UHGV virus genome: UHGV-0207004 | Length of the DNA stretch: 16,978 bases | Source: a virus | Reading direction: 5' to 3' (one strand) | In this document: positions 766 through 16,978 of the stretch, in pieces | Numbering within the stretch: the first letter of the stretch is position 1 | How the letters are laid out: each line of letters opens with the position of its first letter | Made by a program: the position numbers and the translations under genes | The notes under the pieces: generated by a model | Database searches by the model: none | What the model was told of the DNA's origin: nothing | What the model saw: only the letters and a program-made list of their open reading frames with translations

Positions 766-771
766 CAAAAA

Positions 772-800
772 GGGGGCCATTACGGCCCCCGAATTATTTT
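772..800. terminator. bidirectional rho-independent terminator shared by the convergent genes
   Basis: GGGGGCC (772-778) / GGCCCCC (784-790) perfect 7-bp stem with 5-nt loop; A-run 766-771 gives a T-run for the minus-strand transcript, and ATTATTTT 793-800 follows on the plus strand. Confidence 0.6.
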
Positions 801-3821: not shown

Positions 3822-3831
3822 GTTCGTTTCC

Positions 3832-5768: not shown

Positions 5769-5838
5769 GATATAAGCCCTTTTATGCATATGCGCCGACC
5801 ATCGGCAACATAGGAGACGGCCCTGCCATCTAAGGTGG

Positions 5839-5867
5839 ATTATAACAGGCACAAAAAAGCCCACCAA
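5839..5867 (-). promoter_or_regulatory. candidate sigma70-type promoter for the packaging operon (extended -10)
   Basis: Minus-strand reading: TTGGTG (5867-5862), 17-bp spacer, TGT-TATAAT (-10 at 5844-5839); overlaps the preceding terminator hairpin. Confidence 0.3.
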
Positions 5868-5878
5868 ATCGGCGGGCT
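5851..5878 (-). terminator. rho-independent terminator ending the phosphoesterase module
   Basis: On the minus strand: AGCCCGCC / GGTGGGCT stem (one G-U pair), 5-nt loop, followed by TTTTTTG (complement of 5851-5857); immediately downstream of the stop at 5886. Confidence 0.5.
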
Positions 5879-5885
5879 GGGAGGC

Positions 5886-6098
5886 TTAAACGGCGCGACC
5901 GTAGTATCGGGTTAACATGCTTTCAACTTCGCTTATGGCACCCTCTGTGTAGCGTATTTGAGATAGTATCTCGATCCGCTCACTGATAGACATGCCTATT
6001 GCCGCTGCCGTTCGTTCGAATCGGCGCAAGCCTTCTAGTTGTTTGCGTAGCTCTTTCAGGCGGGTGGCCTGCGTGCTCATGAATACTTGTCTAATCAT
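5886..6098 (-). CDS. hypothetical 70-aa helical protein, translationally coupled to the phosphoesterase gene
   Basis: ATG 6098-6096 overlaps the upstream TGA (ATGA); predicted helical, charged; followed by a terminator. Confidence 0.5.
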   Translation of the reverse strand: MIRQVFMSTQATRLKELRKQLEGLRRFERTAAAIGMSISERIEILSQIRYTEGAISEVESMLTRYYGRAV

Positions 6099-7237
6099 CT
6101 CAACATCTCCGGGCTAATGGTTAGGCGCGCCACTTCGCCGTAGTTGGCGCTATAGGTGATGACGTTAGCACTGCGTCCGGACATCCAACCGCCGCGGCTT
6201 GCGTATGCGTCTTTCGCGGCGAGCGTCCGGTGCTGCTCAACAATCATGTTACGGGATTCTACAATCTTCTGGTGGTGCAAGTGACCAACATGCGCGTAAC
6301 TGTACTCGCTCTCGCCAAATGCTTTCCTGAACTTAGAAATCATTACCGACTCGATGGCGTCAAAGCGTGCTTTGTGACCGTGGTGGAAAAACAGCGTGGT
6401 CTTACCGTGCTGCACCATCTTGTATACGTCCGGTGACGTGTCAACATCGACGCGCGGCTCGTTCTCGTACAGGGTGTTGAACATCTCCGCCAGCCAAATC
6501 ATACCAGACTCGTCATGATTGCCCTGGACGATTAGCAGTTTTACTTTGTGGTGCTTTCGCAGCGCCAGGTCTACTACGTTGCGCACCATGCGAATCATGT
6601 AGCGGACCAACTTCTGGTATCGGGTATCCGCGTCCAGGATATGACCACTGGCTGGAGTGACTGCGTCAAGGCTGTCAAAGTGCGCCATATCGCCGAGGAT
6701 ATTGATGACGGCAGTTCCTGCGTCTGGTGCGCGGGCGAAGGCTTCGACAAACCAGCGGTAAAACAGATCTTCGGCGATTGCCATATCCCAGTCCTCGCCA
6801 GTCTCCTCGCCCCATGCCAGCATTCCCAAGTGGAAGTCTGACACTGTGTACAGGTTGAGTAGGTCAAGTGCCTGGATCGGGACGGGCGGGGCGCTAACTG
6901 GTGCTGCCGGTGTGATTTCGCTGTTCATACCCTCGACAACAGCGAGCATTGCTTCGAGTTGGCGCTCCTTGTCCTGCTCGGTGATAACCCATGACATGAC
7001 CTCTTCGCCATTGCCACGCACCAGGGCGGATACACGCTTGACGCCGAATCCATCGGCAACGCGCTTACGGATCACAGCATCGTTGCCGTGCCCAATGCCT
7101 TTCTTCGACAGCCTGGCTTTGCGCATATAGACATTTCGAAGAGCAATGCCATATTTCTTCGCAATCTCTTTCGATGTAGTGCCAGCTTGCAATTCAGCGA
7201 TCAATTGCTCGTCGGTGATTTTAGTTTGCGGATGCAT
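6095..7237 (-). CDS. N-terminal HTH domain fused to a calcineurin-like metallophosphoesterase (380 aa)
   Basis: ATG 7237-7235. N-terminal HTH-like segment (TSKEIAKKYGIALRNVYMRKARL). Metallophosphoesterase motif set seen in the translation: SDFHLG (D-x-H), ILGDMAHFD (GD), QGNHDE (GNHD/E), HHGH, GHLHH (GH-x-H). Confidence 0.75.
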   Translation of the reverse strand: MHPQTKITDEQLIAELQAGTTSKEIAKKYGIALRNVYMRKARLSKKGIGHGNDAVIRKRVADGFGVKRVSALVRGNGEEVMSWVITEQDKERQLEAMLAVVEGMNSEITPAAPVSAPPVPIQALDLLNLYTVSDFHLGMLAWGEETGEDWDMAIAEDLFYRWFVEAFARAPDAGTAVINILGDMAHFDSLDAVTPASGHILDADTRYQKLVRYMIRMVRNVVDLALRKHHKVKLLIVQGNHDESGMIWLAEMFNTLYENEPRVDVDTSPDVYKMVQHGKTTLFFHHGHKARFDAIESVMISKFRKAFGESEYSYAHVGHLHHQKIVESRNMIVEQHRTLAAKDAYASRGGWMSGRSANVITYSANYGEVARLTISPEMLR

Positions 7238-7286
7238 ATTAATTTAATTCCTGATTGAGAGGACCTAGGACAATATACCACGGTCG

Positions 7287-7367
7287 CTATAGTAATTCGC
7301 AAATAACCATACCGACGAATGCGGCGGCGGACCAGATCGCTAATACCCAAATATCATTGCGTGCCAT
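7287..7367 (-). CDS. putative 26-aa hydrophobic micro-protein (MARNDIWVLAIWSAAAFVGMVICELL)
   Basis: ATG 7367-7365 preceded by GGAAGGAG at ~9 nt; single predicted TM helix; sits between the TTGGTTGCA promoter region and the phosphoesterase gene; below the ORF-track size cut-off, so hand-translated. Confidence 0.25.
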   Translation of the reverse strand: MARNDIWVLAIWSAAAFVGMVICELL

Positions 7368-7390
7368 AGTGTGTTACTCCTTCCCGTTGA

Positions 7391-7428
7391 TTGGTTGCAG
7401 TATGGCCTCTATGTTGGTTGCAAGTCAA
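7391..7428 (-). promoter_or_regulatory. promoter/operator region with two TTGGTTGCA 9-mers
   Basis: Perfect TTGGTTGCA at 7391-7399 and 7414-7422; on the minus strand TTGACT (-35, complement of 7423-7428) and a weak CATACT -10 at 18-bp spacing; directly after a terminator and before the micro-ORF and phosphoesterase gene. Confidence 0.4.
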
Positions 7429-7430
7429 GC

Positions 7431-7457
7431 AATAAAAAGCCCGGATAATTCCGGGCT
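7431..7457 (-). terminator. rho-independent terminator ending the lysis unit
   Basis: AGCCCGGA (7438-7445) / TCCGGGCT (7450-7457) 8-bp stem, 4-nt loop; on the minus strand followed by TTTTATT (complement of 7431-7437); 7 nt after the stop at 7464. Confidence 0.6.
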
Positions 7458-7463
7458 TCATGT

Positions 7464-7634
7464 TTACGCCTCCGGTTCTGCCGGTGGTTCCGGTGCCGCT
7501 GGTTCTGGCAGCTTCGCATCAAAAACACCAGCATGACTGATAGTGTCGGCGATAATGGCGCGTGCGCCAGGGTCTTCGGTTTTAGCCAGCGCGGCGAGCG
7601 CGTCGGCGTTATGATCAAGAATGCTTTTTAACAT
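7464..7634 (-). CDS. small protein with Pro-Glu-rich C-terminal tail (56 aa)
   Basis: Track ORF trimmed to ATG 7634-7632, preceded by GAGGAG at 7 nt; sequence MLKSILDHNADALAALAKTEDPGARAIIADTISHAGVFDAKLPEPAAPEPPAEPEA; no TM segment or lipobox, so not a spanin. Confidence 0.5.
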   Translation of the reverse strand: MLKSILDHNADALAALAKTEDPGARAIIADTISHAGVFDAKLPEPAAPEPPAEPEA

Positions 7635-7650
7635 ACTGTGTCTCCTCGTA

Positions 7651-8142
7651 TTACACTGCGTTACGTCCGATTTTCTCGGCAACGTCCCACTGCTTACCAT
7701 CGAATAGTGCCTGCCGACCGATTGCACGGCGGACAAGCCCCTTGAGCACTACCCCACCCTGCTTGCGGAATTGCGGCAGTGTAGCACGTACCTTCGCCCA
7801 GTCACCCAGGCGGACCGCATCATCGAAGTCACCGGCAATGTTGTCCGGCGTGATCGGGCCAGGACCGGTATTGATAACCAGATCCACCAGCGCGTCGAAT
7901 TGCGCCTGATTAATGCTCGGGTGTGCGTACTTGTTCACACAACTTTCGGCATACTCCACATCTCGCTTGAGTAGCTCCAGCGCTTCCGCACGGGTAATGC
8001 TCCGCGGCGGATTTGTGCCGGTGTGTCCATAGCCCCAGGTGTACAGGCCGCGGGCCTGCTCTTTCTTAGTCGCGAAATACGGCACTGGGCTGAATTGCTC
8101 CCATGCTGCCGTGAATCTTAGACCGTTGTCACTGAATCGCAT
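7651..8142 (-). CDS. endolysin, GH24 (T4/P22-lysozyme-like) muramidase
   Basis: 163 aa; ATG 8142-8140 with GGGG SD; from memory of P22 gp19-type lysozymes the translation shares SxNG...GxGHTG...NQxQFDAL...FNxG-type blocks; position after holin-like genes. Confidence 0.8.
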   Translation of the reverse strand: MRFSDNGLRFTAAWEQFSPVPYFATKKEQARGLYTWGYGHTGTNPPRSITRAEALELLKRDVEYAESCVNKYAHPSINQAQFDALVDLVINTGPGPITPDNIAGDFDDAVRLGDWAKVRATLPQFRKQGGVVLKGLVRRAIGRQALFDGKQWDVAEKIGRNAV

Positions 8143-8374
8143 GTTTTACCCCATTCAAAACAGCATTACGCAGTGTGCGCAATGCAAACAGCCAGATTAA
8201 CGCGGTCCAGGTGGCGTCAGATACGTCTCCCGTTTGCAACAGACCGACAATACAGGTCATTGCCGTTAGCAGATACAACACCCGACCGAAGAAGCCATCC
8301 TGAACGGATGGCGCGTACACGTTAAACAGGGACGATGCCCCGATAATCACAAACAACAGGACGGTGATAATCAT
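8129..8374 (-). CDS. holin/antiholin-like small membrane protein (81 aa)
   Basis: Track ORF (171 aa) trimmed to ATG 8374-8372, which overlaps the upstream TGA (ATGA) and has a GGGGGG SD; three hydrophobic segments; 3-prime end overlaps the endolysin start. Confidence 0.5.
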   Translation of the reverse strand: MIITVLLFVIIGASSLFNVYAPSVQDGFFGRVLYLLTAMTCIVGLLQTGDVSDATWTALIWLFALRTLRNAVLNGVKHAIQ

Positions 8375-8661
8375 TTTGCGCCCCCCGGAAGGCGGAACGA
8401 CGCAATCGTCTCCCTGATCCGGGCGGCGATTGGCATCCAGAAGATGGCTGTTACGAAGCCCAATCCGGCGACAGTTCGCTCGCCAGATAGGCCAGCCCAC
8501 TCGGCAATCGCTGGCGCACCGAAAATGGCACACAAGAAGCCGACCACGATGTATAACACGAAGTTTAATGGCCCTTTCGTGGCCTCGCCATGAATGCGAG
8601 CGCCAACGAATCCGCCTGCAAGGCACGCTAGGGCGAATAACCATTCGTTCAGCTTTTCCAT
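8371..8661 (-). CDS. holin-like membrane protein (96 aa, three predicted TM segments)
   Basis: ATG 8661-8659; hydrophobic segments WLFALACLAGGFVGARI, FVLYIVVGFLCAIFGAPAIA, GLGFVTAIFWMPIAA; charged C-terminus; first gene of the holin-holin-endolysin block. Confidence 0.55.
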   Translation of the reverse strand: MEKLNEWLFALACLAGGFVGARIHGEATKGPLNFVLYIVVGFLCAIFGAPAIAEWAGLSGERTVAGLGFVTAIFWMPIAARIRETIASFRLPGGAK

Positions 8662-8695
8662 AAAAAAGTCCCAGTAAGTTTTAGCTCACTGGGAC
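8662..8695 (-). terminator. hairpin plus T6 immediately abutting the holin start codon (tR-prime-like terminator or translational control element)
   Basis: GTCCCAGT (8668-8675) / ACTGGGAC (8688-8695) perfect 8-bp stem, 12-nt loop; on the minus strand followed by TTTTTT (complement of 8662-8667) and then directly ATG 8661. Confidence 0.5.
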
Positions 8696-8713
8696 TATAT
8701 CACGCTTGCATAG

Positions 8714-9001
8714 TTAATCGAAAATGGACCACTTACCGACGCCTTTCCATTCCCACCCTTCCGATCGGACGGCCTCGAACATACGGCCCCCGATCATATC
8801 CCGATACCACAGCCACCACATGCGCAGCTTGGTTGGGTGTTCGGTAATGCCGCGGCGCTTGTATATCTGGAACGTCATCCGGGTAATGCTGGCAGCTTCC
8901 ACGGCAGGCCATACCAGGAATACCCAAATAACTAACAACACTGCCGCGATAAGGCATAGTCCGCAGGCCAGCCCAAACCAATATATCATTTCGTGTAACA
9001 T
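8714..9001 (-). CDS. small membrane protein (95 aa), function unknown
   Basis: ATG 9001-8999 with AAGGGG SD at 8 nt; N-terminal TM helix, Trp-rich C-terminal half; caveat: two other frames are also open here, so coding status is uncertain. Confidence 0.4.
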   Translation of the reverse strand: MLHEMIYWFGLACGLCLIAAVLLVIWVFLVWPAVEAASITRMTFQIYKRRGITEHPTKLRMWWLWYRDMIGGRMFEAVRSEGWEWKGVGKWSIFD

Positions 9002-9122
9002 CGTATTGCCCCTTCTGGTTGTCCGATGTGGCGCGCCCAGGCACGCGCCACGAAGTAATTGCGGAACACTCGCCCGCCTATCTCAAAGCGGTTGTGCATG
9101 AGTATATCGCGGATGGTCGCAC

Positions 9123-9695
9123 TCATTTCAGAATCACCGAGCGCGGGTCGATGACGGTCATGTTGCCGTCCGGTTCGACACGGATGAATCCAACGCCATA
9201 CTCTTTAGCGTGGCGCTGTGCATTCGTCACGGCGTCAAAGCGATTGATGATTTCACGCGTTGCCTGGCGGATCGGCTCCATCACTTTGCTCGCGTCGTAG
9301 GCTGCATAGGCGGTCTGTGACTTGCGGAACTCAACGCGCTCATGTGGCTGGCGGATGCGCAGGCAGTATTTACGCCCCACTCGCTCGTAGTTGACCAGCC
9401 CGAAGTAAGCCACGCTCTTAACCATGTTGCCGGTACCGCCCTCCTTGCGGGTCTGCATACGAATGCAATAAAAACCAACATTCTCCACAATCCACAGCTG
9501 CCCGTCGCGAATATCCCGCAGCACATCGCCGCGCTCAATATCGTGGGTGAGTACGTCGAAGTTTTCCGACAGCTTGTCTTTCTTCGCCCACCACACCCGA
9601 CTACCTGCCGCGTTTTGCAAGCGGACGTAGGAATCCAGGGTCTGGATCGGCTTCAGGATGCATCCATCCCATTTACGGCGGAATAGTAATTTCAT
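9123..9695 (-). CDS. hypothetical protein (190 aa)
   Basis: ATG 9695-9693 overlapping the upstream TGA (ATGA); no motif recognised; last gene before the late leader and holin genes. Confidence 0.55.
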   Translation of the reverse strand: MKLLFRRKWDGCILKPIQTLDSYVRLQNAAGSRVWWAKKDKLSENFDVLTHDIERGDVLRDIRDGQLWIVENVGFYCIRMQTRKEGGTGNMVKSVAYFGLVNYERVGRKYCLRIRQPHERVEFRKSQTAYAAYDASKVMEPIRQATREIINRFDAVTNAQRHAKEYGVGFIRVEPDGNMTVIDPRSVILK

Positions 9696-9961
9696 TTGCT
9701 CAGTCTCCAGTGTTTGCCTGCCCGCTCAATGGCAGGCTTTCGGCGTAATGTAATACGGATCCCCATTGGTTGCAAGGAAGTCCGCACCCTGAAATCATGT
9801 TGTGCTGCGAACTGGTGCAGGTAGCGAGTCTGCGTAAGTGGCTTCGCATCATCGCGATAGCTCCAGTACACAGAATCGCCCTCAATCGCATTCTGCGCCC
9901 ATATTCGTATGCAATGCAGGGGAATGCCCCATGAAAGCTGTTTAGCTCGCCTCCGGCTCAT
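9692..9961 (-). CDS. hypothetical basic protein (89 aa)
   Basis: ATG 9961-9959 with AAGGGG SD; Arg/Trp-rich; translationally coupled to the downstream gene; contains an internal TTGGTTGCA at 9766-9774. Confidence 0.45.
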   Translation of the reverse strand: MSRRRAKQLSWGIPLHCIRIWAQNAIEGDSVYWSYRDDAKPLTQTRYLHQFAAQHDFRVRTSLQPMGIRITLRRKPAIERAGKHWRLSK

Positions 9962-9970
9962 TTTGGCCCC

Positions 9971-10276
9971 TTATTTCGCAAGCTGGGCGAATAGTTCGCG
10001 CTGGGCTTTAATCCGGGCGACGTTTGTCACTGCCGTCTCCCCGATCCCGAAGCGATAAGCCAGGCGCTCACGGGAGAATGCCATCGCATATTCGCAGATT
10101 GCCACGCGCAGCGGCTCCAGTTCGTCCAGGCTGGCAAACATATCGTCGAACGCGTTCATGATCGCCTGCTGGGTCAGGATGACTACCTCGCGCGCTTCGT
10201 CTGCGTTGCCGTTTAGTGCCTTCGCTTCGTCCAGCTTTGCCACGGCCAGGGTGTAATTCCAGATTAGTGCTTTCAT
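9971..10276 (-). CDS. hypothetical protein with C-terminal HTH-like segment (101 aa); candidate small regulator
   Basis: ATG 10276-10274 overlapping the upstream TGA; C-terminal RLAYRFGIGETAVTNVARIKAQRE resembles a helix-turn-helix. Confidence 0.5.
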   Translation of the reverse strand: MKALIWNYTLAVAKLDEAKALNGNADEAREVVILTQQAIMNAFDDMFASLDELEPLRVAICEYAMAFSRERLAYRFGIGETAVTNVARIKAQRELFAQLAK

Positions 10277-10470
10277 CGTTCAGTCCTCTTCGTGATGGTT
10301 ACGCTATCCAGGAATTGCAGCAAGGCCTCTTGCGCCTTTACACGCAATCCGGCGTAGTGGCGCGATTTCTTAATGTCGCCGACCATGTACGCTGCGCGTG
10401 CTTGCAAATCAGCTTTGTTCTCGGCCTCAATCAGTTCCAGCAGTTCGTCTACCAGGTCTTCGTGGTCCAT
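10273..10470 (-). CDS. hypothetical acidic helical protein (65 aa)
   Basis: ATG 10470-10468 with GAGGA SD at ~10 nt; first gene downstream of the promoter and repeat region. Confidence 0.5.
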   Translation of the reverse strand: MDHEDLVDELLELIEAENKADLQARAAYMVGDIKKSRHYAGLRVKAQEALLQFLDSVTITKRTER

Positions 10471-10485
10471 TGTTCAATCCTCATG

Positions 10486-10531
10486 TTGGTGTGCAACCAA
10501 TATATCAGTGTGCCCGGCCGGATGCAACCAA
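10486..10531 (-). promoter_or_regulatory. sigma70-like promoter overlapped by two TTGGTTGCA sites
   Basis: Minus-strand reading: -35 TTGCAT (complement of 10522-10527), 17-bp spacer, -10 TATATT (complement of 10499-10504); 9-mer copies at 10523-10531 and 10492-10500 (complement); the 21-mer TATATTGGTTGCACACCAACA is shared with 16579-16599. Confidence 0.45.
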
Positions 10532-10680
10532 TATTAATCACGCGCATGAAAAAGTTGATCGCTATCTGCTGCAACTGCAAACTGCATTTTTCACTCTCCA
10601 TTCTGCAACTCGCATTGGTTGCCGAGTTCATCGACGACCGCAATTTGCATCATGTTGCCGTGGATTATGCAATCCTGGAT

Positions 10681-11000
10681 TTTATGCAGTCTCAGACGAG
10701 GGGGGTGCCAGACCCCCCGTCTAGTCTGAAAGACTGGGGTGCTGTCCCGCTGTCCCGATCGGCTAAAACCCGCGGCAGCACTGGCGGGGACGGGGTGCTG
10801 TCCCGCTTTGTCCCGCCTCAATTTTGTCCCGCTTTTGTCCCGTTTGTTTTATGCATGAAAACTGAATAGGTATGCACTTTTCAGAGGGGTGCCAGATCGG
10901 GACGTCCCGCCTGTCCCGCTTTTAGTTTATGCAATAAAAGTAAATAGGTATGCAGTTTTTGAGGGGCGGGACAAAACGGGACGTCCCGCTTGTCCCGCTT
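10681..11000. repeat. ORF-free iteron array: three imperfect ~75-bp tandem modules carrying GTCCCGC heptamers (~10 direct, 3-4 inverted copies)
   Basis: GTCCCG(C) at 10744, 10752, 10800, 10810, 10826, 10837, 10904, 10913, 10983, 10992 (pairs 8-11 bp apart); inverted CGGGAC at 10898, 10967, 10977; modules start TTTATGCA at 10681, 10849, 10926 and share GAGGGG(TGCCAGA) and AATAGGTATGCA blocks; no ORF of 60 aa or more on either strand. Confidence 0.7.
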
Positions 11001-11002
11001 CA

Positions 11003-11679
11003 TTATGCGGGGTTTTGTTGCGCCATTTCATCGAGCGCGATTCGTTCCATTAGCTTGATATCTTTAAACGCGCGCTGCTCGTTTTCGATACCGTGCATCT
11101 TAAATAACCATTCCAGCACGCCATAGTCGATGCCGTATGCGCCACCGAATCCGGTGCGCCATTGCGTAGAGCAATCTGTGAAGACTGCGACTACCTTCGC
11201 GTTGTCGGGCCATAGCGCAACAGGCGGGCAAACGTCTTCAGGTGCCGCGCCCCATAAACTCGCGGCTAAGTCCTCTGATGGTGGCGGCGGACCGTAAAAT
11301 CGCCTCGCCGCCTCAATTAGTTTTTTTCACGCAGTCCCATCAGTTCGAGATAGTACGAGGTGTGGAACACGCCAAACGCGCGCGGATAGTTTACCACCAG
11401 GCGGCGAACGTTCTCCGCGTTAAATTCGTCCGGCAGGTTCCAGCCTTCAGCGACGTGCATGATGGCCTCAACCATAACGTTAAAGCCATCCGGGTCGTTG
11501 TCGTCATATTCTGATAGCTTGCGTTCCGTTTCCTGCATGGTCTGCGAAAATTCGTCAATCGGGCGGTGGCGGACGGTAAACGTCATCTTGCCTGGTTCGT
11601 TCTCACCAGGGCGCGGGATCTCAATCGGCAGCTTAAAGGTCGGCTTAGGGTCAAGTGTGAAGAGTGGTGCTTTAGCCAT
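11003..11679 (-). CDS. tail assembly chaperone GT fusion (predicted -1 programmed frameshift product)
   Basis: Slippery run GAAAAAAAC (complement of 11320-11328) at the last codons of G; the -1 frame has a stop 2 codons upstream of the slip site, then stays open for ~105 codons to TAA 11005-11003 with no plausible start codon or SD of its own. Confidence 0.45.
11317..11679 (-). CDS. tail assembly chaperone G (120 aa)
   Basis: Track ORF (TTG 11694) trimmed to ATG 11679-11677 with GGAG SD; small acidic protein directly downstream of the major tail protein gene and ending in a slippery A-run. Confidence 0.55.
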   Translation of the reverse strand: MAKAPLFTLDPKPTFKLPIEIPRPGENEPGKMTFTVRHRPIDEFSQTMQETERKLSEYDDNDPDGFNVMVEAIMHVAEGWNLPDEFNAENVRRLVVNYPRAFGVFHTSYYLELMGLREKN

Positions 11680-11692
11680 TGTAATATTCTCC

Positions 11693-11718
11693 AATAAAAA
11701 AGGGGCCGTGCTGGCCCC
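11693..11718 (-). terminator. rho-independent terminator after the major tail protein gene
   Basis: GGGGCC (11702-11707) / GGCCCC (11713-11718) stem, 5-nt loop; on the minus strand followed by TTTTTTATT (complement of 11693-11701). Confidence 0.6.
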
Positions 11719-11748
11719 ATATTATCACTCGCTATTTAAGCGACCAAA

Positions 11749-12474
11749 TCAGGCGAGTGCCTCGACCAGGTCCTTACGGTAGATGACCATATCAGACTGC
11801 ATGGTCAGAGTGGATTGTACCGTTTCCACGTTGTTTACTTCAGCGGACGGAATCTTCTGGAAAGATACCTTAGCCGGGTAAATACGAATTTCACCTTTGC
11901 CGCTTGCTGCCGCTGGGTTAGTGAACTTAATCACAGTGGTTTTCTGTGTGTCGTCCAGGTCTTCCAGGATTGGGCGGATCGGGTCTTCTTCGTCGTGGGT
12001 GAAGGTGTAAGTCTGGACCAACGGGTTTTTCGTGGTGTTCAGACTGATCGCGGTGTTCACCTGCAACGGCTGGAAGGTAGTCGTCTGCTGGTCACCACCA
12101 GAAACAGCAACGTTAGTGATAAACGGGAAGTCGATAAAGTTAGCCACCTTAACCACTTCGCCAGGTGTACCCGCTGCAAAAGCCCCCGCCGGATATTTGG
12201 TCACATCCGAGGTGTCGAAGCGCGCGAGCGTGACGTCGTTGGTAGCCACTTTACCCACGATGAACGCGCGGTTCTGCGCGCGGACCCACGGAGATTTAGT
12301 GAACATTACCACGTCGCCAACTTTCAGACCGTGAGACGCCGCGCAGGTGATTACGCAACCAGTGGTAAGGTTGGAGATCGACGCGGTGGCGTTGGAAGCT
12401 GCCGTAACAGCGATGCCGCTGCCCAGTACGGACCCAATCTGGACGCTGGACCCGTTAGGAAGTTGATAACCCAT
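11749..12474 (-). CDS. major tail (tube) protein
   Basis: 241 aa; ATG 12474-12472 with AGGAG SD; Gly/Ser/Thr/Val-rich beta-type composition; followed by a terminator and a chaperone gene with a frameshift, the canonical siphovirus arrangement. Confidence 0.55.
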   Translation of the reverse strand: MGYQLPNGSSVQIGSVLGSGIAVTAASNATASISNLTTGCVITCAASHGLKVGDVVMFTKSPWVRAQNRAFIVGKVATNDVTLARFDTSDVTKYPAGAFAAGTPGEVVKVANFIDFPFITNVAVSGGDQQTTTFQPLQVNTAISLNTTKNPLVQTYTFTHDEEDPIRPILEDLDDTQKTTVIKFTNPAAASGKGEIRIYPAKVSFQKIPSAEVNNVETVQSTLTMQSDMVIYRKDLVEALA

Positions 12475-12534
12475 AATGAAGCTCCTGTTTAGATATACGG
12501 ATTAATGATACAGCACGCGCAGAATTGCGCCAAA

Positions 12535-12957
12535 TCAGGCGCAACAGCTATACATGATTGATACCACGATGCGGGCGCGGTCAACATCCTCGACCACAGA
12601 ACTGGTATATGGCGCGTCCTGAAGCTGGAAAGCCGCGCCATCGATCTTGACGCCATGCCATTTGTCAGACGTCGCGATGGCGTCCGCCAGTTCGCTCGCG
12701 TACTGTGTGCCCGTGCCCGCAGGGAACACAACGGCAACCTGGTAAACGCCTGCATAGATCCGGCCTTTCTGCTGAAGGCCAGCAAACTGGGTCGGGGCCG
12801 GTAGCAGGTACGGCTCCAGGTAGACGCCATTACCGTTTGCGTGGTCGCCCTTCACGTTCTCCCAGTTAACCTGGATCGGACGCTGGTTAGTGCTCAGGCT
12901 AACCGCCAATTCTTCTACTACGCTGTTAAGCGCCTTGCGGATTAGAGTATTGCTCAT
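12535..12957 (-). CDS. head-tail joining / tail terminator-like protein (140 aa)
   Basis: ATG 12957-12955 overlapping the upstream stop; call is from position between head-tail connector genes and the major tail protein only. Confidence 0.4.
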   Translation of the reverse strand: MSNTLIRKALNSVVEELAVSLSTNQRPIQVNWENVKGDHANGNGVYLEPYLLPAPTQFAGLQQKGRIYAGVYQVAVVFPAGTGTQYASELADAIATSDKWHGVKIDGAAFQLQDAPYTSSVVEDVDRARIVVSIMYSCCA

Positions 12958-13550
12958 TATTTCACCTTAGAATTGATTTCTGCCGCCACAACGCGAACAA
13001 TCCCCGCTGGCGCTTGTTTACTCCAGCCATACTCCAGTCGCTGCGCATACGGCACATTATTAGTAAACCAGATCGATCCGTATTCGCCAGAATCGTAATG
13101 CGCCAGCACGTCACGCCCTGCGGCTAATGTTGCCGTTCCAGCCTTGTCCACTCTGTCGATAGCGCCGACAGCCGGACGGTCGAAAGTCACCTGCCAGTTT
13201 CCCCGGAAGCGTCCGCCGGTGTAATTCTTCGCGGCCCAGCCACGCTGGCGAAATGTGACGTTGCCGTCTTTAGTCTTAAACGAGACGAGCACACTTGCGT
13301 GTTTCTTCTGCCCGCGCTTCAGTTTGCCGCCATTCTTGCGGCGCTGTGCGGCGTTCACCTTGTTCGCGTGCTGGCGGGCCATCGCGAACGCCCTGTTAAT
13401 CTTCCACCGGCGGGGGTCGCCCACCGGGGAAATCTCAATCAGGCGTCCGAGTATTTGCATACCGGTCGCCCGCACCGCCTTGTCGTTATTCTCCTTCGTC
13501 TTTTCCACCCAGGTGGCGATGGTGGCGGCGAACGAGTAGACCTCAGCCAC
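12957..13550 (-). CDS. head-tail connector family protein (197 aa), possibly HK97 gp10-like
   Basis: GTG 13550-13548 with AAGGGG SD at ~5 nt; synteny between capsid and tail genes; family assignment is from recollection, not a search. Confidence 0.4.
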   Translation of the reverse strand: MAEVYSFAATIATWVEKTKENNDKAVRATGMQILGRLIEISPVGDPRRWKINRAFAMARQHANKVNAAQRRKNGGKLKRGQKKHASVLVSFKTKDGNVTFRQRGWAAKNYTGGRFRGNWQVTFDRPAVGAIDRVDKAGTATLAAGRDVLAHYDSGEYGSIWFTNNVPYAQRLEYGWSKQAPAGIVRVVAAEINSKVK

Positions 13551-13551
13551 A

Positions 13552-13905
13552 TTAGCCCCTTAGCTGTAATTGAAACAGCATGGTAGTTCCCGCCGGTTGC
13601 AGTGGATTTGGATTGATAACACGGTAGTCCGTGCTATTCAGGTTGACCAGATCGCCTACCTGCACTTGCTCCGATGCCTGGCATAAGAACTTAACGTCAC
13701 CGGCAATGATACGAGTCCCGTCGATCTCGCTGGGCTTGTACTCCTCGCGAAGACCGATGACATCAAACGACGTTGGCGGGATAACCACTTCTTCGCCGCC
13801 TACGCGGTCAACAGACCCCGGACGCGTCACCTTAACGGTCATGCCGTATTTTTTAATCAGCGGATTTACTTTCCGCTTCAAGCCTGCGTAGTTAAAGCCC
13901 GCCAT
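13552..13905 (-). CDS. head closure / head-tail adaptor-like protein (117 aa)
   Basis: Track start GTG 13914 abuts the SD; ATG 13905-13903 has GGAGGG at ~9 nt and is preferred; synteny. Confidence 0.45.
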   Translation of the reverse strand: MAGFNYAGLKRKVNPLIKKYGMTVKVTRPGSVDRVGGEEVVIPPTSFDVIGLREEYKPSEIDGTRIIAGDVKFLCQASEQVQVGDLVNLNSTDYRVINPNPLQPAGTTMLFQLQLRG

Positions 13906-13906
13906 T

Positions 13907-14002
13907 TTATTCACCCTCCGGCGCTGGTTCTGGTTCTGGTTCTGGTTCTGGTGGCTGTTTGGTATTTGCGGCGATAACAGCCGCGAGTAATGCAGGATTC
14001 AT
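13907..14002 (-). CDS. 31-aa mini-protein with (Pro-Glu)4 repeat (MNPALLAAVIAANTKQPPEPEPEPEPAPEGE)
   Basis: ATG 14002-14000 one nt after the upstream TAA, AGGGG SD at ~5 nt; stop TAA 13909-13907 one nt before the next ATG; fills an otherwise unexplained 97-nt gap; resembles the C-terminus of the 56-aa protein at 7464-7634. Confidence 0.3.
   Translation of the reverse strand: MNPALLAAVIAANTKQPPEPEPEPEPAPEGE
13925..13953. repeat. hexanucleotide tandem repeat (TGGTTC) x4 plus a partial copy
   Basis: TGGTTC at 13925, 13931, 13937, 13943, then TGGTG; encodes the PEPEPEPE stretch on the minus strand. Confidence 0.85.
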
Positions 14003-14003
14003 A

Positions 14004-14504
14004 TTAGCCCCTGTACACGTCAAAGTTACCGGCGGCGTTGCCGTCTGTGTTCACCCAGTAGCCCAGCAGGCCATCCCACCACGGGAAAGACACACCACTA
14101 CCAATCGACGCAGCGTCATACTCCATCGTGATCGGGCCTACCGTTTCGCGGATAGTCTCCTTTCCATCGCCGATCGGAGAAATATCAACATCGTCAGCCA
14201 CCAGCATTGCCAGCCGGTAAACGGCTTGTTCAACGGCAACGGGGATTGATGCGAAGTCTACAATCTGCCCAGCAGGTACTACTGCCAAATCTTCGGTAAG
14301 CGTGTTCAGTACCGGCTTACCGTCTGATGGGTAGTTGATGCGGGGCCATGCGTCAATTCCGGTCGGGTCCGCCGGTTCGCCGATCCAGGCGATGCCGTTG
14401 AGGAAATCATTAACTATGGTAAGGTGTCGCGTTGCATCGCCCTGCGTAATTTCAACGCCTCGCGCCGCGGCATAAACAACGAAGGTTTGCGGGTCGCCAT
14501 ACAT
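14004..14504 (-). CDS. head-tail connector / head completion candidate (166 aa)
   Basis: ATG 14504-14502 with AGGAG SD at 8 nt; first gene after the capsid terminator; synteny only. Confidence 0.45.
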   Translation of the reverse strand: MYGDPQTFVVYAAARGVEITQGDATRHLTIVNDFLNGIAWIGEPADPTGIDAWPRINYPSDGKPVLNTLTEDLAVVPAGQIVDFASIPVAVEQAVYRLAMLVADDVDISPIGDGKETIRETVGPITMEYDAASIGSGVSFPWWDGLLGYWVNTDGNAAGNFDVYRG

Positions 14505-14517
14505 TTTATTTGCTCCT

Positions 14518-14543
14518 ATAAAAAAGGCGGGCTTATGCCCGCC
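14518..14543 (-). terminator. rho-independent terminator after the major capsid gene
   Basis: GGCGGGC (14526-14532) / GCCCGCC (14537-14543) 7-bp stem, 4-nt loop; on the minus strand followed by TTTTTT (complement of 14520-14525). Confidence 0.6.
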
Positions 14544-14562
14544 CCTTTGGGATTTGCGCCGA

Positions 14563-15663
14563 TCAGGACGCTGTGGTCGCAGTCAGCGTAACCAGTACGC
14601 CAGCCGTTTCCTTGATGTTACGGGTCGGCACTTCCTGCGCGGCCTGGGTCTTACGACGGCCTTTAGTATCGCCATCACCCACCGCGCCAACATCCTGAAC
14701 GGTTGCCGGTGCGTTGTCTACTTGGCCCTGGTCCAGTTCCCAGTTTGCGGAAGTGGTAATATCGCTCAGTTTGAACGAGCGTACACCTTCGATCGGGGTG
14801 CGAGCGGACGCCTTCAGACGGTAGCCTTTAACAGCCACGTTGAAGTCGAACTCACCCTGCCACCAGCGTTCGATGTTCTCGTTACCGCCTTTTTCCTGCG
14901 CCAGCATATCAAGGCCGTTGGTGGTAACTGCAACCGCGCCAGGGACCAGACCCAGCATTTTACCCGCGCCCATAGCATCGGCAGCGGCATCGGAGATAAT
15001 GAAACGACGACCCAGGCCGTCACCCATTACCTGCAGATCGCCGATCGCAAATACCTGCTCGGCAGACGGGAGCGCCTGGTACGCAATGAAGTTTGCCCAG
15101 GTAACGCCGTCCATAAACCAGGATTTAATCAAAGACGCCTGATCGCCGAACTTAGAAGCCGCCAGCGGGAAGTCTGCCAGGGTCGGGAAGGTACGACCGC
15201 CAACACCGTCAACACGCGCCGGTTGGGTGTATGCTGCCGCTGGGTTGCTCTCGATCGCCGCTTTACTTGCGCCGATACCGGCCTTCAGGTAATGCAGCAT
15301 AATCGCTTGAGTAGCCTGTGCCGCAATCTCAGCCGCAACGCTGTTAACGTTGGTTTCGATCTTAGCCATCATAGCCTTAGTGATTGCCACCGGACCCACT
15401 TTCGCGGAGAGGTTGACCGAGTTGGTCAGCATACGCGCCAGCACTTTAGCGGTCGCCGGAGTACCGACAGGGGCATATGCGTTACGGTCAGTAACGAGGT
15501 TGGCGATCAAGCCTACGGACATTTTTTCTACAACGTCCTTCAGCACTTCACCTGTACCGAGAACAACAGCGCCGTTCGCGGCAGCGTTGAACACGTTCAG
15601 GTTGTCGGGGATCATTTGCGTAACCGCGGTAACGAGTTTACGCTGGAACACTGTTAAAGACAT
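14563..15663 (-). CDS. major capsid protein
   Basis: 366 aa; ATG 15663-15661 with AAGGA SD; immediately downstream of the scaffold gene and followed by a strong terminator; Ala/Gly/Val-rich; call from size, position and expression signals. Confidence 0.7.
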   Translation of the reverse strand: MSLTVFQRKLVTAVTQMIPDNLNVFNAAANGAVVLGTGEVLKDVVEKMSVGLIANLVTDRNAYAPVGTPATAKVLARMLTNSVNLSAKVGPVAITKAMMAKIETNVNSVAAEIAAQATQAIMLHYLKAGIGASKAAIESNPAAAYTQPARVDGVGGRTFPTLADFPLAASKFGDQASLIKSWFMDGVTWANFIAYQALPSAEQVFAIGDLQVMGDGLGRRFIISDAAADAMGAGKMLGLVPGAVAVTTNGLDMLAQEKGGNENIERWWQGEFDFNVAVKGYRLKASARTPIEGVRSFKLSDITTSANWELDQGQVDNAPATVQDVGAVGDGDTKGRRKTQAAQEVPTRNIKETAGVLVTLTATTAS

Positions 15664-15730
15664 ATCGAAATCCTTTGAGTTGTGAGCATTCGCCCAGTGA
15701 CGTTAATGTTACCTTAGATTTACGCGCTCG

Positions 15731-15756
15731 CAAAATCGCCCGCTTTCGCGGGCGAT
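15731..15756 (-). terminator. attenuator-like hairpin between scaffold and capsid genes
   Basis: ATCGCCCGC (15735-15743) / GCGGGCGAT (15748-15756) perfect 9-bp stem, 4-nt loop; on the minus strand followed by only TTTTG (complement of 15731-15734). Confidence 0.35.
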
Positions 15757-15760
15757 CTGC

Positions 15761-16465
15761 TTACTCGTCGTCGCCCATTTTAGCGATGATTTCACCGGCC
15801 TGTTTTGTCAGGTCTGTAATACCAAAGCTATGGCCCATCGAGATTTTCGGCTTCGCATCTTCAATAACCTGTGTCGGTTTGCTCGGAGCGCCACCTGCTG
15901 GCGTGCCTGCTAGTACGGATGCAAAATCGGCGTTACTACGGAACTCTTTTTCAAGCTCTTCCATAGTAAGGGCGGACGGTTTGCCATCCTTCAACACCCG
16001 CAATTTCAAGCTGCCGTCTTCGCCGTCTTCCAGCGCGAGTCGGTCCATTACGTGGCGTTGCATGATGCCCGCATTCTTACCGAACAGCTTCGACGCCAGG
16101 TCTTTGGCAGCGCTGCCGATGGTTAGATCGTGGATCTGCTTGCGGTAGGCTTCGATTTTACCCGATGTGTCTGCTTCGTGTTTTGCAAACTTATCCTTCC
16201 AGGATTTATCGATCGCTTCGAGGTCGCCATTTTTGCGCGCGGCGGCTTCCTCTTTCTCTTTCGCAAGGCGCTCGGCTTCGGCGCGGCGTTCGGCTTCTGC
16301 TTTCTTCTCGCTCACCAGCTTTGCGTTGTTGTCTTTCAGACCCTTGATTTCCGCCTGCACTTCGTCAGCGGTCATAAATGTTGACTTATACCCGTCGCCA
16401 TCGGCAACAAAAAGCGCCTTCATACCTTCTGGCAACGCGTCGTATTCTGCTTTGGTAAGTTTCAT
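15761..16465 (-). CDS. scaffolding protein (234 aa)
   Basis: Track ORF (start 16699) trimmed to ATG 16465-16463 with AGGGGGA SD; Lys/Glu/Ala-rich coiled-coil-like central region (KKAEAERRAEAERLAKEKEEAAARK); directly upstream of the capsid gene. Confidence 0.6.
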   Translation of the reverse strand: MKLTKAEYDALPEGMKALFVADGDGYKSTFMTADEVQAEIKGLKDNNAKLVSEKKAEAERRAEAERLAKEKEEAAARKNGDLEAIDKSWKDKFAKHEADTSGKIEAYRKQIHDLTIGSAAKDLASKLFGKNAGIMQRHVMDRLALEDGEDGSLKLRVLKDGKPSALTMEELEKEFRSNADFASVLAGTPAGGAPSKPTQVIEDAKPKISMGHSFGITDLTKQAGEIIAKMGDDE

Positions 16466-16555
16466 GCTATCCCCCTGGGATTGTGGCAGAGCGGGCCACC
16501 CGCTCGACTTCACGCCTCTAATATTATCAGCGATAAAAATAATCGCAAAATTCGC

Positions 16556-16599
16556 TTGCAATCCTGGTGTTGGTTGCATATATTGGTTGCACACCAACA
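16556..16599 (+). promoter_or_regulatory. plus-strand sigma70-like promoter overlapped by two TTGGTTGCA sites, in a divergent intergenic region
   Basis: -35 TTGCAA (16556-16561), 17-bp spacer, -10 TATATT (16579-16584); 9-mer copies at 16570-16578 and 16583-16591; the 21-mer 16579-16599 is the reverse complement of 10484-10504; a GAGCGGG/CCCGCTC hairpin at 16489-16505 lies in the scaffold gene leader. Confidence 0.45.
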
Positions 16600-16619
16600 G
16601 AGATATGAAGGAAAACAAG

Positions 16620-16934: not shown

Positions 16935-16978
16935 ACTAAACCAAACGGGGCGAAAGCCCCAACCACGAGGACACAAAA

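Follow-up and report, generated by a model that had tools for sequence, protein, structure and literature searches.

Organization of the locus

The stretch of DNA analyzed here (16,978 bp in full; hereafter, the window) is Dhillonvirus sequence, i.e., that of an HK578/SO-1-like coliphage, whose full-length relatives are ~44.5 kb. It contains an array of short repeats that lies, as the initial annotation had placed it, directly past the gene for the G/GT tail assembly chaperone, with its edge 5 bp beyond the GT stop codon (11005-11003), and ~4.8 kb from terS (5217-5867). The chaperone components correspond to Phage_TAC_4 (G) and DUF1799 (T), and the -1 slippery site A AAA AAC is at 11320-11326. 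In full-length relatives the array occurs in two versions, termed here sites A and B, of which the window carries a hybrid. The features are as follows:

9971..10470, minus strand: first genes downstream of the array in the circle, a 65-aa ORF (10470-10273) and a gp53 homologue (10276-9971)
10471..10681, minus strand: site-B-type flank with the promoter-associated motif ATTGGTTGC
10682..11002: hybrid iteron element with 13 iterons; left part (10682-10757) common to sites A and B, centre and right part of site-A type
10687..10736: imperfect 19-bp hairpin, CAGTCTCAGACGAGGGGGG, loop TGCCAGA, CCCCCCGTCTAGTCTGAAAGACTG
10744..10757, plus strand: two iterons in tandem, the first such pair, GTCCCGCTGTCCCG, with a spacing of 8 bp
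10758..10791: central segment of site-A type, ATCGGCTAAAACCCGCGGCAGCACTGGCGGGGAC; site B usually has CTCCTCTCCAGGCCGCGTCATCCGGGGCGGGACA here
10800..10842, plus strand: four direct iterons with spacings of 10, 16 and 11 bp; positions fixed in 37/37 sites examined
10843..10885: AT-rich block 1, TTTTATGCA...TGAATAGGTATGCAC
10898..10918: module 2, palindrome CGGGACGTCCCG and one direct iteron
10919..10962: AT-rich block 2, TTTAGTTTATGCAATAAAAGTAAATAGGTATGCAG, repeating block 1 at 78-79 bp
10965..10998: four iterons forming two inverted tandem pairs, GGCGGGACAAAACGGGAC and GTCCCGCTTGTCCCGC
11003..11694, minus strand: gene for tail assembly chaperone G (11694-11317) and, by -1 frameshift, GT; on the late strand this gene directly precedes the array

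The hexamer GTCCCG occurs 15 times on the two strands of the window, and 13 of these sites fall within the 254 bp from 10744 to 10997, where ~0.15 would be expected (shuffles of the whole window gave 9.8 per 16,978 bp). Ten copies are direct (plus strand: 10744, 10752, 10800, 10810, 10826, 10837, 10904, 10913, 10983 and 10992) and three inverted (10898, 10967 and 10977), in line with the roughly ten and three to four recorded initially; likewise as described, there are five tandem pairs (spacings 8, 10, 11, 9 and 9 bp) and two copies of the palindrome CGGGACGTCCCG (10898-10909 and 10977-10988). The full iteron is 10 bp long, with the late-strand consensus RRGCGGGACA derived from 353 copies. 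The proposed division into three ~75-bp modules holds for two genuine repeats (10826-10881/10904-10959 and 10878-10921/10957-11000; 77-82% identity, 78-79 bp apart); the supposed third, 10682-10757, is instead the 19-bp hairpin with an iteron pair. The motif GAGGGG(TGCCAGA), taken to be part of each module, is not conserved: at 10885-10896 most relatives have an inverted fourth iteron (GGGGYGGGACAGA), mutated in the window to GGGGTGCCAGA, and the second occurrence is the variable hairpin loop (10706-10712). The hairpin stems are near-invariant across all A and B sites, and their core (GACGGGGG...CCCCTCGTC) is also found upstream of the tape-measure gene in the Eiauvirus eiAU-183. AT-rich block 1 is related to AATAGTTATGCA, which adjoins the helicase-primase gene in PaulFeyerabend (site B) and in the Salmonella phage vB_STM-ZS.

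In agreement with the initial annotation the array is not a promoter: a scan found no sigma-70 consensus within 10682-11002, and the lone sigma-70 call in the scanned region (11031-11002, late strand) straddles the right edge of the array, with its -35 element within the GT coding sequence. In the flank, ATTGGTTGC occurs in late-strand sense at 10493-10501 and 10524-10532 and in the opposite sense at 10614-10622, and a sigma-70-like promoter, TTGCAT (10527-10522), 17 nt, TATATT (10504-10499), points into the downstream genes; it was read by eye, with 8/12 matches, and falls under the scan threshold. Since a separate sigma-70-like promoter stands between the array and the next gene both in the window and in vB_STM-ZS, the array is not the promoter of these genes. 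The parallel statement that it is not a terminator stands for the long hairpin (10687-10736), which has no T-run or U-tract 3' to it on either strand, but less clearly for the GT-proximal palindrome, which has TTTT after it on the late strand and which the HK578 record annotates as a rho-independent terminator; it would be a weak one, and our late-strand scan did not call it. Strong intrinsic terminators of the late region lie at 11718-11702, 8696-8667, 7459-7436, 5878-5858 and 790-772. An Rfam scan of 9900-11800 gave best E-values of 0.5-0.7, far under the gathering scores, a tRNA/tmRNA scan of the same interval found none, and the array had no match in E. coli genomes and plasmids. Several candidate identities were considered and dropped: DnaA boxes, because the TTATGCA core is conserved while the final two box positions of the TATGCA-containing blocks are not; IHF sites, rejected by eye; a PhoB box, suggested by the TGTC core and the pst-phoU host of JLBYU27, for which there was no real match; and a CsrA-type GGA sponge RNA, for which the GGA context is wrong and the use of inverted copies is a further objection.

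The two proteins offered earlier as HTH candidates for binding the array are not supported in that role: 9971-10276, the gp53 homologue, belongs to a family with no assigned function (phrog_9839), and 6095-7237 encodes a calcineurin-like phosphoesterase/exonuclease. Pfam and PDB searches with the gp53 homologue and the 65-aa ORF gave no match, and a single-sequence AF2 model of the gp53 homologue was of low confidence (pLDDT 59). The 65-aa ORF is missing from PaulFeyerabend and JLBYU27. The assertion that the array contains no ORF is literally incorrect, as mechanical ORFs cross it (e.g., 10591-10821, minus strand), but none is conserved in frame among relatives. Among 18 site-A sequences the longest stop-free stretch shifts strand, frame and length (61 and 55 codons in the window), and 1-nt indels separate close relatives within the array; nothing in it is thus conserved as coding sequence.

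Two copies of the element and the join of the 17-kb circle

In full-length Dhillonvirus genomes the element is present twice, as direct repeats in one orientation. Site A lies between the G/GT chaperone and tape-measure genes, and site B directly downstream of the helicase-primase gene; in PaulFeyerabend they span 11392-11713 and 39587-39760, respectively, and share a core of 175 bp with 84.6% identity. The genes of the interval 9971-10470 follow site B, not site A, in these genomes. Every full-length relative has the array between GT and the tape-measure gene, which begins 64 bp past the left edge of the array (PaulFeyerabend 11713 versus 11777). Hence, the earlier view that the array occupies the place of a tape-measure gene is wrong—relatives carry the array and, beyond it, the gene. 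All Dhillonvirus contigs of IMG/VR measure ~44 kb, and from most of them an A-type as well as a B-type site was recovered with an exact 25-mer.

The iterons occupy the same positions in 37/37 sites (+195, +207, +223, +233, +281 and +289/290), while spacers and hairpin loop vary. The distances between neighbors (8 bp in 16 cases, 9 in 40, 10 in 38, 11 in 3, 12 in 33 and 16 in 30) place adjacent iterons about one helical turn apart, as had been claimed, but no global helical phase runs through the 37 sites. GCGGGAC is restricted to sites A and B. The two copies evolve in concert, and one metagenome site B has an A-type centre, which indicates gene conversion between them. The AT-block element of site A is inverted relative to that of site B, and the element stands where the structural half of the genome meets the tail/replication half. 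From this alignment of near-invariant iteron cores and spacings set in drifting spacers, the array is a conserved non-coding element and looks like a site for several copies of one DNA-binding protein, consistent with the multimer-binding architecture proposed initially. We found no description of it in the literature searched, and matches to the hairpin pattern outside Dhillonvirus and eiAU in an IMG/VR scan appear to be fortuitous (coding sequence, tRNA arms, terminators).

Closed into a circle of 16,978 bp, the window consists of the 16.7-kb segment that runs from site B through terS, capsid and GT genes to site A, joined through the hybrid A/B array. Window positions 10468-10855 match PaulFeyerabend 39976-39587, and 10682-16599 match 11713-5783; the window ends are contiguous when set against full-length genomes. 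What the window lacks is 28 kb comprising the tape measure, the tail tip and all replication genes. The tape-measure gene is thus absent because the window is joined across two element copies 28 kb apart; the join excises this DNA, so that the array does not replace the gene. If the centres of the parental A and B sites were standard, the crossover would lie left of or inside the first tandem iteron pair (10744-10757). The GenBank record JLBYU27 has the same join, and it and the window are the only hybrids among the IMG/VR Dhillonvirus contigs and records compared.

It is more likely that such a contig was closed on two repeat copies by the assembler or a circularity check. Kente lacks ~80 bp of site A and ends exactly at the point where A and B diverge, the HH3 and Maverick records are linearised at the repeat, and the JLBYU phages were assembled in Geneious at medium-low sensitivity and accepted once circularised; JLBYU27 itself is not mentioned in the JLBYU assembly paper or in other literature searched. 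Against an artefact, exact A/B identity at the crossover extends over at most ~50-85 bp, which paired reads would normally resolve. Given this short identity and the gene conversion that occurs between A and B in nature, a real deletion circle arising by recombination between the copies is possible, if the less likely of the two. The reciprocal junction (A flank with the right part of B, 28 kb; searched with a synthetic query) is absent from 159 Dhillonvirus records, and an exact-pattern scan of IMG/VR for further junctions of B flank and A palindrome returned 0 matches. A metagenome scan for a B flank with an A centre retrieved one contig only, the true site B with an A-type centre and not a mini-genome, and PEC14 (37 kb) was rejected as a deletion variant, being a truncated assembly.

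We regard it as rather doubtful that the 17-kb circle is a "mini-Dhillonvirus" repeatedly shed by recombination between the origin-like copies, i.e., a defective interfering or satellite-like genome comparable to IncQ satellite plasmids or the f1 miniphage. Such a genome would retain a single hybrid origin together with the terminase/pac region and the genes for head, major tail and lysis, would obtain replication functions and tails from a co-infecting full-length phage, and might be packaged as ~2.7-mer headfuls; if real, it would provide genetic evidence for the array as a cis-acting origin. Direct repeats of 175 bp can mislead both assembly and "circular = complete" calls: the 28 kb are missing from no fewer than two deposited or derived "complete" genomes of ~17 kb (the window and JLBYU27), and breaks at the repeats are seen in several further records. 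When Dhillonviruses are engineered, recombination or deletion between sites A and B should be expected.

A candidate replication origin and its rivals

The Dhillonvirus replication module comprises the helicase-primase (AAA_25), Pol I, a SNF2 helicase, an Enc34-type ssDNA-binding protein and a DUF2800 nuclease. In Dhillonvirus, and likewise in a sister lineage (68-69% protein identity) with the same iteron and the same spacing, the array starts 40-160 nt past the helicase-primase stop codon. In vB_STM-ZS, whose helicase-primase is 43.6% identical, 7 of the 11 genomic copies of GGGGAGA fall within 145 bp after this gene and flank an AT block with the 12-mer AATAGTTATGCA, which is shared with PaulFeyerabend site B and is unique in both genomes. 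In eiAU-183 a 52-bp element with a CGCCCCG repeat follows the helicase-primase gene and is found again in the interval from GT to the tape-measure gene. Iterons thus follow the helicase-primase gene in at least four lineages, as GCGGGACA (Dhillonvirus and sister), CGCCCCG (eiAU) or GGGGAGA (STM-ZS), so that its sequence differs among lineages while position and AT block persist. A layout with two sites is not universal, given that the Serratia phage Smarc3 lacks an array altogether and that STM-ZS has no second one.

The helicase-primase is classified by PHROG as a replicative helicase-primase and by Pfam as AAA_25; the best Foldseek PDB matches of its model are to RSF1010 RepA (1nlf, 1g8y, 1olo; E-values 5e-11 to 1e-10, TMt 0.66-0.70). 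Between genera, identity is only 17-34% over the C-terminal 95 residues, versus 60-78% in the helicase core; these residues are predicted to form a helix-helix-helix-strand-strand unit. By this predicted order of secondary structures the domain may be winged-helix-like; the fold search itself was dominated by the helicase domain. The small HTH proteins encoded upstream of the helicase-primase are non-homologous between genera, and in the three lineages where they are of the Cro/C1 type they are more likely early regulators.

Of the readings considered, we rank highest, though tentatively, that the element is an iteron-type replication origin present in two copies, by analogy with SPP1 oriL/oriR or P4 ori/crr; a replication origin was also the first option of the initial annotation. 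A phage protein would bind the iterons cooperatively, the best candidate being the divergent winged-helix-like C-terminal domain of the helicase-primase, with the small HTH protein encoded upstream of it as an alternative. The adjoining AT-rich block would then melt and the RepA-like helicase load, and the conserved hairpin, once single-stranded, may signal priming or loading in the manner of the IncQ ssi hairpins. The primary origin would be site B, with site A as a second copy among the late genes, like SPP1 oriR or P4 crr. This proposal is consistent with the clustering of a short motif in a non-coding stretch, with AT-rich blocks beside the iterons (10843-10885 and 10919-10962), with the lowest-GC 40-bp window of the PaulFeyerabend genome (GC 0.20) adjoining the site-B iterons, and with the linkage in relatives of lineage-specific iterons to a helicase gene, which is itself absent from the window. 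Against it, GC/AT skew follows gene orientation only and gives no origin signal, and the iterons are short (10 bp) and unevenly phased (12, 16, 10, 48, 8-9) compared with classical iterons of 17-22 bp.

Moreover, both sites stand at plausible starts of late transcription units, and given the several strong intrinsic terminators of the late region, a transcriptional role fits their positions equally well. The iterons might bind a phage regulator—an activator, a roadblock or an antiterminator loader—at the head of two late units, with site B heading gp53, lysis, terS, head and GT genes and site A the tape-measure and tail genes, and in the transcript the hairpin might stabilise the 5' end, be cut by RNase III or mediate antitermination in a put/nut-like way. 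Both sites are oriented with late transcription and precede gene blocks, and the terminators would suit antitermination; in eiAU, where GT is followed by a strong terminator, transcription of the tape-measure gene has to start anew, and the element directly precedes this gene. At PaulFeyerabend site A a sigma-70-like sequence (CTGAGA, 17 nt, TAAAAT) overlaps the 3' arm of the hairpin, and the terminator annotated in HK578 points the same way. The combination of invariant stems and variable loop is as expected of a structured RNA, and the array folds better than shuffled sequence (z = -4.5), but Rfam is empty and there is no covariation because the stems never vary. Nine to 13 sites over 320 bp in both orientations would be unusual for an activator and meaningless for an RNA signal, and the inversion of the AT-block element between the two sites is likewise unexpected. 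The capsid-to-GT block, presumably the most expressed, has no upstream iterons, and the promoter-type motifs (ATTGGTTGC; TTGCAT-17-TATATT) are separate, lying between the array and the next gene. As it also fails to explain why, in four lineages, the array is tied so closely to the helicase-primase 3' end, we consider control of late transcription unlikely, albeit the strongest competitor of the origin reading.

A pac site, another of the options raised initially, is improbable. TerS rings would here bind the phased short repeats and TerL make its first cut nearby, giving two headful entry points. The terminase is indeed of the headful type (TerS Sf6/P22 gp3-like, TerL Terminase_6N), and the SPP1 pacL/pacR and P1 pac sites are arrays of short repeats; like the present element, these sites are clusters of repeats about one helical turn apart that act as multimer sites of headful phages. 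Pac sites of the Sf6/P22 type are inside or adjoin terS, and those of SPP1 and P1 are single and at or in the terminase genes, whereas the element is duplicated, lies 4.8 kb from terS and travels across lineages with the helicase-primase gene, not with the terminase genes. A pac site is annotated in Smarc3 in the equivalent intergenic region after the helicase-primase gene, which also counts against the origin, but that position has no iterons. In GenBank, several records begin close to or at the arrays—PTXU06 and BMA1 have their first base in common, 116 bp beyond the hairpin of site B, and HH3 starts directly past the hairpin—and such starts are equally explained by assembly breaks at the repeat or by a copied reference start.

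We give slightly less weight still to a nucleoprotein site of some other kind that plays no part in initiation, be it solely a fork barrier or theta-to-sigma switch, a centromere-like or condensing site, a decoy for a host protein, or a homology patch for module exchange. Concerted evolution and gene conversion between A and B, and the position at the boundaries of the genome halves, would suit such a site, as would the precedent of SPP1 oriR, for which a fork-barrier function is proposed (PMC6316719). Neither plasmids nor E. coli genomes gave a match to the array, and a pure homology patch would not fix iteron positions to the base while the spacers drift. In their direct and inverted short repeats, the plasmid binding arrays of omega and ParR recall the present one. 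However, the annotations of these virulent phages include no ParA/ParB, omega-like or recombinase genes, leaving the partition centromere and arm-type recombinase site proposed earlier without support.

If the origin reading is true, it would provide a mapped origin for widely used coliphages, including BASEL phages, SECphi18 and FhuA-dependent phages, and a testable system of 10-bp iterons, AT-rich block and hairpin with a fused RepA-like helicase-primase. With two sites it would match SPP1 and P4 in layout, and one could then ask why a second origin is placed among late genes, e.g., as a fork barrier or as a switch to concatemer synthesis.

Comparison with known origins

As in phage lambda, phage-encoded iterons adjoin an AT-rich region in or beside a replication gene, but the lambda origin is a single copy inside gene O with four O-protein iterons of 18-19 bp, each an inverted repeat, and its initiator is of another family. 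The P4 ori and crr consist of 8-bp iterons, direct and inverted, at two separate loci, and the P4 alpha protein (777 aa) unites primase, helicase and a C-terminal winged-helix origin-binding domain in one polypeptide. The Dhillonviruses likewise have their 10-bp iterons at two loci in both orientations, and a helicase-primase of ~755 aa with a putative winged helix, assigned by predicted secondary-structure order. The P4 alpha helicase belongs to superfamily 3, whereas the one here is RepA/RecA-like (AAA_25), and the iteron sequences are unrelated.

In RSF1010, an initiator on iterons, the RepA helicase and hairpin priming signals cooperate (PMC8567376). The element resembles this oriV in its iterons, AT-rich block and conserved hairpin, in which the stem is weightier than the loop (PMC8567376), and a RepA-type hexameric helicase is present according to Foldseek. 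In the RSF1010 oriV, however, the iterons number 3.5 and are 20 bp long, and the two ssi hairpins lie on opposite strands; a Dhillonvirus site has 6-13 iterons, each 10 bp long, and a single long inverted repeat, of which either strand could fold. Searches with the proteins of the Dhillonvirus replication module showed no match to RepC or RepB', and the RepB' primase is separate, whereas the Dhillonvirus primase is fused to the helicase.

SPP1, a lytic siphovirus of ~44 kb with headful packaging and two elements of repeats plus AT-rich DNA (PMC6316719), offers a close parallel in layout. It has two origins of direct repeats with an AT-rich unwinding element, one in a replication gene and the other intergenic amid late genes (PMC6316719), and the Dhillonviruses too have one copy in the replication module and one among late genes. 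The SPP1 copies are ~13 kb apart on the circular map versus 16.7 kb here (PMC6316719), and oriL is inside gene 38, while site B comes after the helicase-primase gene. There is no sequence or protein homology between the systems: SPP1 uses the binder gp38, the loader gp39, the DnaB-type helicase gp40 and a host polymerase, of which no homologous set is found in the Dhillonviruses with their fused helicase-primase and Pol I. For the SPP1 origins binding and initiation are proven, whereas for the Dhillonvirus element they are predicted. By this analogy, the element would work like the SPP1 origins without being a member of the SPP1 family.

Anatomy of the iteron cluster

The hexamer GTCCCG occurs 15 times on the two strands of the window, and 13 of these copies fall within 10744-10997, where whole-window shuffles (9.8 per 16,978 bp) predict about 0.15 per 254 bp. 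By this count the motif cluster of the initial annotation is genuine; its five tandem pairs (spacings 8, 10, 11, 9 and 9 bp) and the palindrome CGGGACGTCCCG, found at 10898-10909 and 10977-10988, were likewise recovered, with ten copies of the array direct and three inverted. The proposed series of three ~75-bp modules holds in part: two modules of 78-79 bp are true repeats, whereas the third is an imperfect hairpin followed by an iteron pair. The GT stop lies 5 bp before the array, and the surrounding genes are on the minus (late) strand.

10687-10736: 19-bp imperfect hairpin
11694-11317, minus: tail assembly chaperone G (Phage_TAC_4)
11005-11003, minus: stop of GT, the -1 frameshift product (DUF1799; slippery site A AAA AAC)

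Over 353 copies from 37 sites, the late-strand iteron consensus is RRGCGGGACA. Full-length Dhillonvirus genomes carry the element twice, as sites A and B, and in the core common to both the iteron offsets are constant in every genome (+195, +207, +223, +233, +281 and +289/290), unlike the spacers between them, which drift across the 37 sites. Most B sites have an extra inverted iteron at +248, and site A adds two modules, each with four iterons in inverted tandem pairs and an AT-rich block. The hairpin stems are invariant, and the loops fall into two families, CCRYTGA and TGMCAGA. A terminator scan found no U-tract after the hairpin, Rfam and tRNA scans of the array were empty, and no ORF is conserved across it among the relatives compared.

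Two sites per genome and the join in the window

Matches to the array region came from 159 Dhillonvirus records (80-93% identity) and from no E. coli genome. Against the reference phage PaulFeyerabend (44,550 bp) the window aligns as follows.

10682-16599: PaulFeyerabend 11713-5783
1-5768: PaulFeyerabend 5768-1
5769-10855: PaulFeyerabend 44550-39587, in pieces

Two of these alignments overlap on window 10682-10855; hence, in the full-length genome a ~175-bp core is present twice in direct orientation, the copies being 84.6% identical. GT and the tape-measure gene, which starts 64 bp past the array, flank site A; the helicase-primase gene and gp53 flank site B. The array thus does not stand in for a tape-measure gene, as had been supposed, since in relatives it lies between GT and that gene. 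The IMG/VR Dhillonvirus contigs retrieved by an invariant 25-mer are all ~44 kb, and most gave one A-type and one B-type site, which their flanks separate cleanly. A B-type left flank joined to an A-type centre and right part occurs only in the window and in GenBank JLBYU27 (OK272475; 16,547 bp, labelled 'complete genome'), which has the same topology. The last and first 600 nt of the window align contiguously to full-length genomes, so its 16,978 bp form a closed circle. The circle runs from site B through lysis, terS, head, tail tube and GT to site A, omitting 28 kb with the tape-measure gene, tail tip, fibres and entire replication module.

This join is probably an artefact. Other records break at the repeat: Kente (OX460974.1) runs from within the hairpin loop to the exact point of divergence between A and B, with ~80 bp of site A absent, and Maverick and HH3 are linearised there. 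Further, window position 1 is exactly the ATG of ORF 1-765, which looks like the output of a pipeline rotating contigs called circular, and autonomy is impossible for a phage that lacks tape-measure, tail-tip and replication genes. For the JLBYU phages, assembly was done in Geneious at medium-low sensitivity, and assemblies were accepted once 'circularized'; the paper on them does not mention JLBYU27. In favor of a real deletion, the two hybrids are ~88% identical to each other and each 90-92% to its nearest full-length phage, which makes them independent, and the 159 records hold no reciprocal 28-kb junction. Natural recombination between the sites also points this way: A and B sites have variable sub-segments in common, and a metagenomic site B (OERD01001008.1, 1-2531) has B flanks on both sides of a 34-bp central segment that otherwise typifies site A, which we read as evidence for gene conversion. 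A recurrent, packaged 17-kb defective genome seems unlikely.

Three deposited Dhillonvirus records are incomplete: Kente, a genome assembly; BEK2-2 (MN158213.1), labelled complete, in which ~540 bp are absent, taking in the bulk of gene G and the beginning of the T part; and PEC14 (NC_073051.1), labelled complete at 37 kb and cut short inside the DNA polymerase and helicase-primase genes. Elsewhere in the window, a 178-bp insertion that PaulFeyerabend and JLBYU27 lack here carries a 65-aa ORF (10273-10470, minus), for which Pfam, PHROG and PDB gave no match. Between divergent gp07-like and gp08-like genes, ~380 bp (16600-16978) not in PaulFeyerabend include a 73-aa ORF (16703-16924, minus); BEK2-2, Kente and one further record (L025) align contiguously across this segment. 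The gp08-like ORF is longer too, with 312 aa in the window versus 234 aa.

Putative promoters and terminators around the array

PaulFeyerabend has 16 copies of the motif ATTGGTTGC, where 0.2 would be expected. They are intergenic, mostly oriented with transcription, present on both sides of site B, and overlap -35-like TTGCAT/TTGCAC hexamers; a promoter or operator motif of early or middle type is therefore probable. In the window ATTGGTTGC occurs at:

10493-10501 and 10524-10532, late-strand sense
10614-10622
about 16557-16590

The motif explains window 10471-10681, in which a sigma-70-like TTGCAT-17-TATATT can also be read by eye; the promoters are therefore distinct from the array. Comparable directional intergenic repeats have been reported in T1-like phages (PMC11447400), and GTTGGTTGC plays the corresponding part in eiAU. 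Serratia phage Smarc3 (MT980832.1) has a 33-bp promoter-like element (TTGCGT-17-TAGAAT) three times, at 79-111, 3780-3812 and 27538-27572.

Strong intrinsic-terminator-like hairpins, all on the minus strand, punctuate the late block:

11702-11718: after the major tail gene
8667-8696: before the holins
7436-7459: after the endolysin region
5858-5878: just before terS
772-790: after the spanins

These five suggest that late transcription is modular or that antitermination is needed. Control of late transcription by the array would fit them, as well as the positions of the two sites; however, the capsid block has no iterons, inverted iterons and an inverted AT element are in use, and separate promoters exist, making this role rather doubtful.

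The helicase-primase link and a possible origin

Comparison across lineages links the array to the 3' end of the helicase-primase gene. In a sister lineage (helicase-primase 68-69% identical) it begins 40 nt past the stop codon, with iteron, 12/16 spacing and hairpin all as in Dhillonvirus. In Salmonella phage vB_STM-ZS (NC_069150.1; helicase-primase 43.6% identical), seven of the 11 GGGGAGA copies of the genome fall, an inverted pair included, in 145 bp directly after this gene (4228-4372). They surround two GAATAGTTAT repeats and an AT block whose 12-mer AATAGTTATGCA recurs in PaulFeyerabend site B and occurs once in each of the two genomes. Next comes a separate strong promoter, and the genome has no second copy; this array looks like a single-copy counterpart of site B. 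In Eiauvirus eiAU-183, a 52-bp element containing CGCCCCG repeats follows the helicase-primase gene and recurs between GT and the tape-measure gene, where the hairpin core is retained as well. Smarc3 has no array. Thus, iteron sequence varies by lineage while position and AT block persist; the site-B AT block is the lowest-GC 40-bp stretch of the entire PaulFeyerabend genome.

Near site B, PaulFeyerabend 39439-39560, just past the helicase-primase stop, holds two ~30-bp direct repeats (ATTTTGCGCGCATTGGTTGCC...) around a perfect 20-bp palindrome, GATATGGGAATTCCCATATC. The annotated 'gp52' (39565-39750, 61 aa) overlaps site B and matched neither a PHROG nor a Pfam family; it is unlikely to be a gene. 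A sister-lineage genome has a short microsatellite, (CGCACA)4, in the site-B flank (12590-12613).

A packaging (pac) site is improbable. The terminases are of the headful type, and the leads are record start points and Smarc3, whose position 1, 450 bp downstream of the helicase-primase gene, is annotated 'pac site'; against these stand the array's distance from terS, its occurrence twice per genome and its helicase-primase linkage. Other nucleoprotein roles appear slightly less probable still.

We tentatively propose an iteron-type origin. The iterons would be bound by the helicase-primase through its variable C-terminal domain, or by gp50, a small HTH protein encoded upstream; the AT block would then open and the RepA-like helicase load, with the hairpin as a single-strand priming or loading signal. 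Site B would be primary, and site A a second copy amid late genes. Between genera, the helicase core is 60-78% identical versus 17-34% for the C-terminal ~95 residues, predicted as helix-helix-helix-strand-strand (AF2 model, pLDDT 79); the best PDB matches of the model are to RSF1010 RepA helicase. The upstream HTH proteins are non-homologous between genera and of Cro/C1 type in three lineages.

The searchable literature yielded no description of this element. P4 alpha binds its iterons through its C-terminal domain, and by analogy may model the helicase-primase C-terminus. For the hairpin, ssiA/ssiB of RSF1010 could serve as a model of priming or loading (PMC8567376). The element is provisionally best filed as a candidate iteron-type, two-site phage origin. 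The closest known architecture is that of SPP1, where oriL lies in the replication gene and oriR occupies an intergenic segment splitting assembly genes, each comprising direct repeats together with an AT-rich unwinding element; oriR is thought to stall forks, triggering the switch to concatemer synthesis (PMC6316719). SPP1 and Dhillonvirus have no protein homology, so the element would function like the SPP1 system rather than belong to its family.
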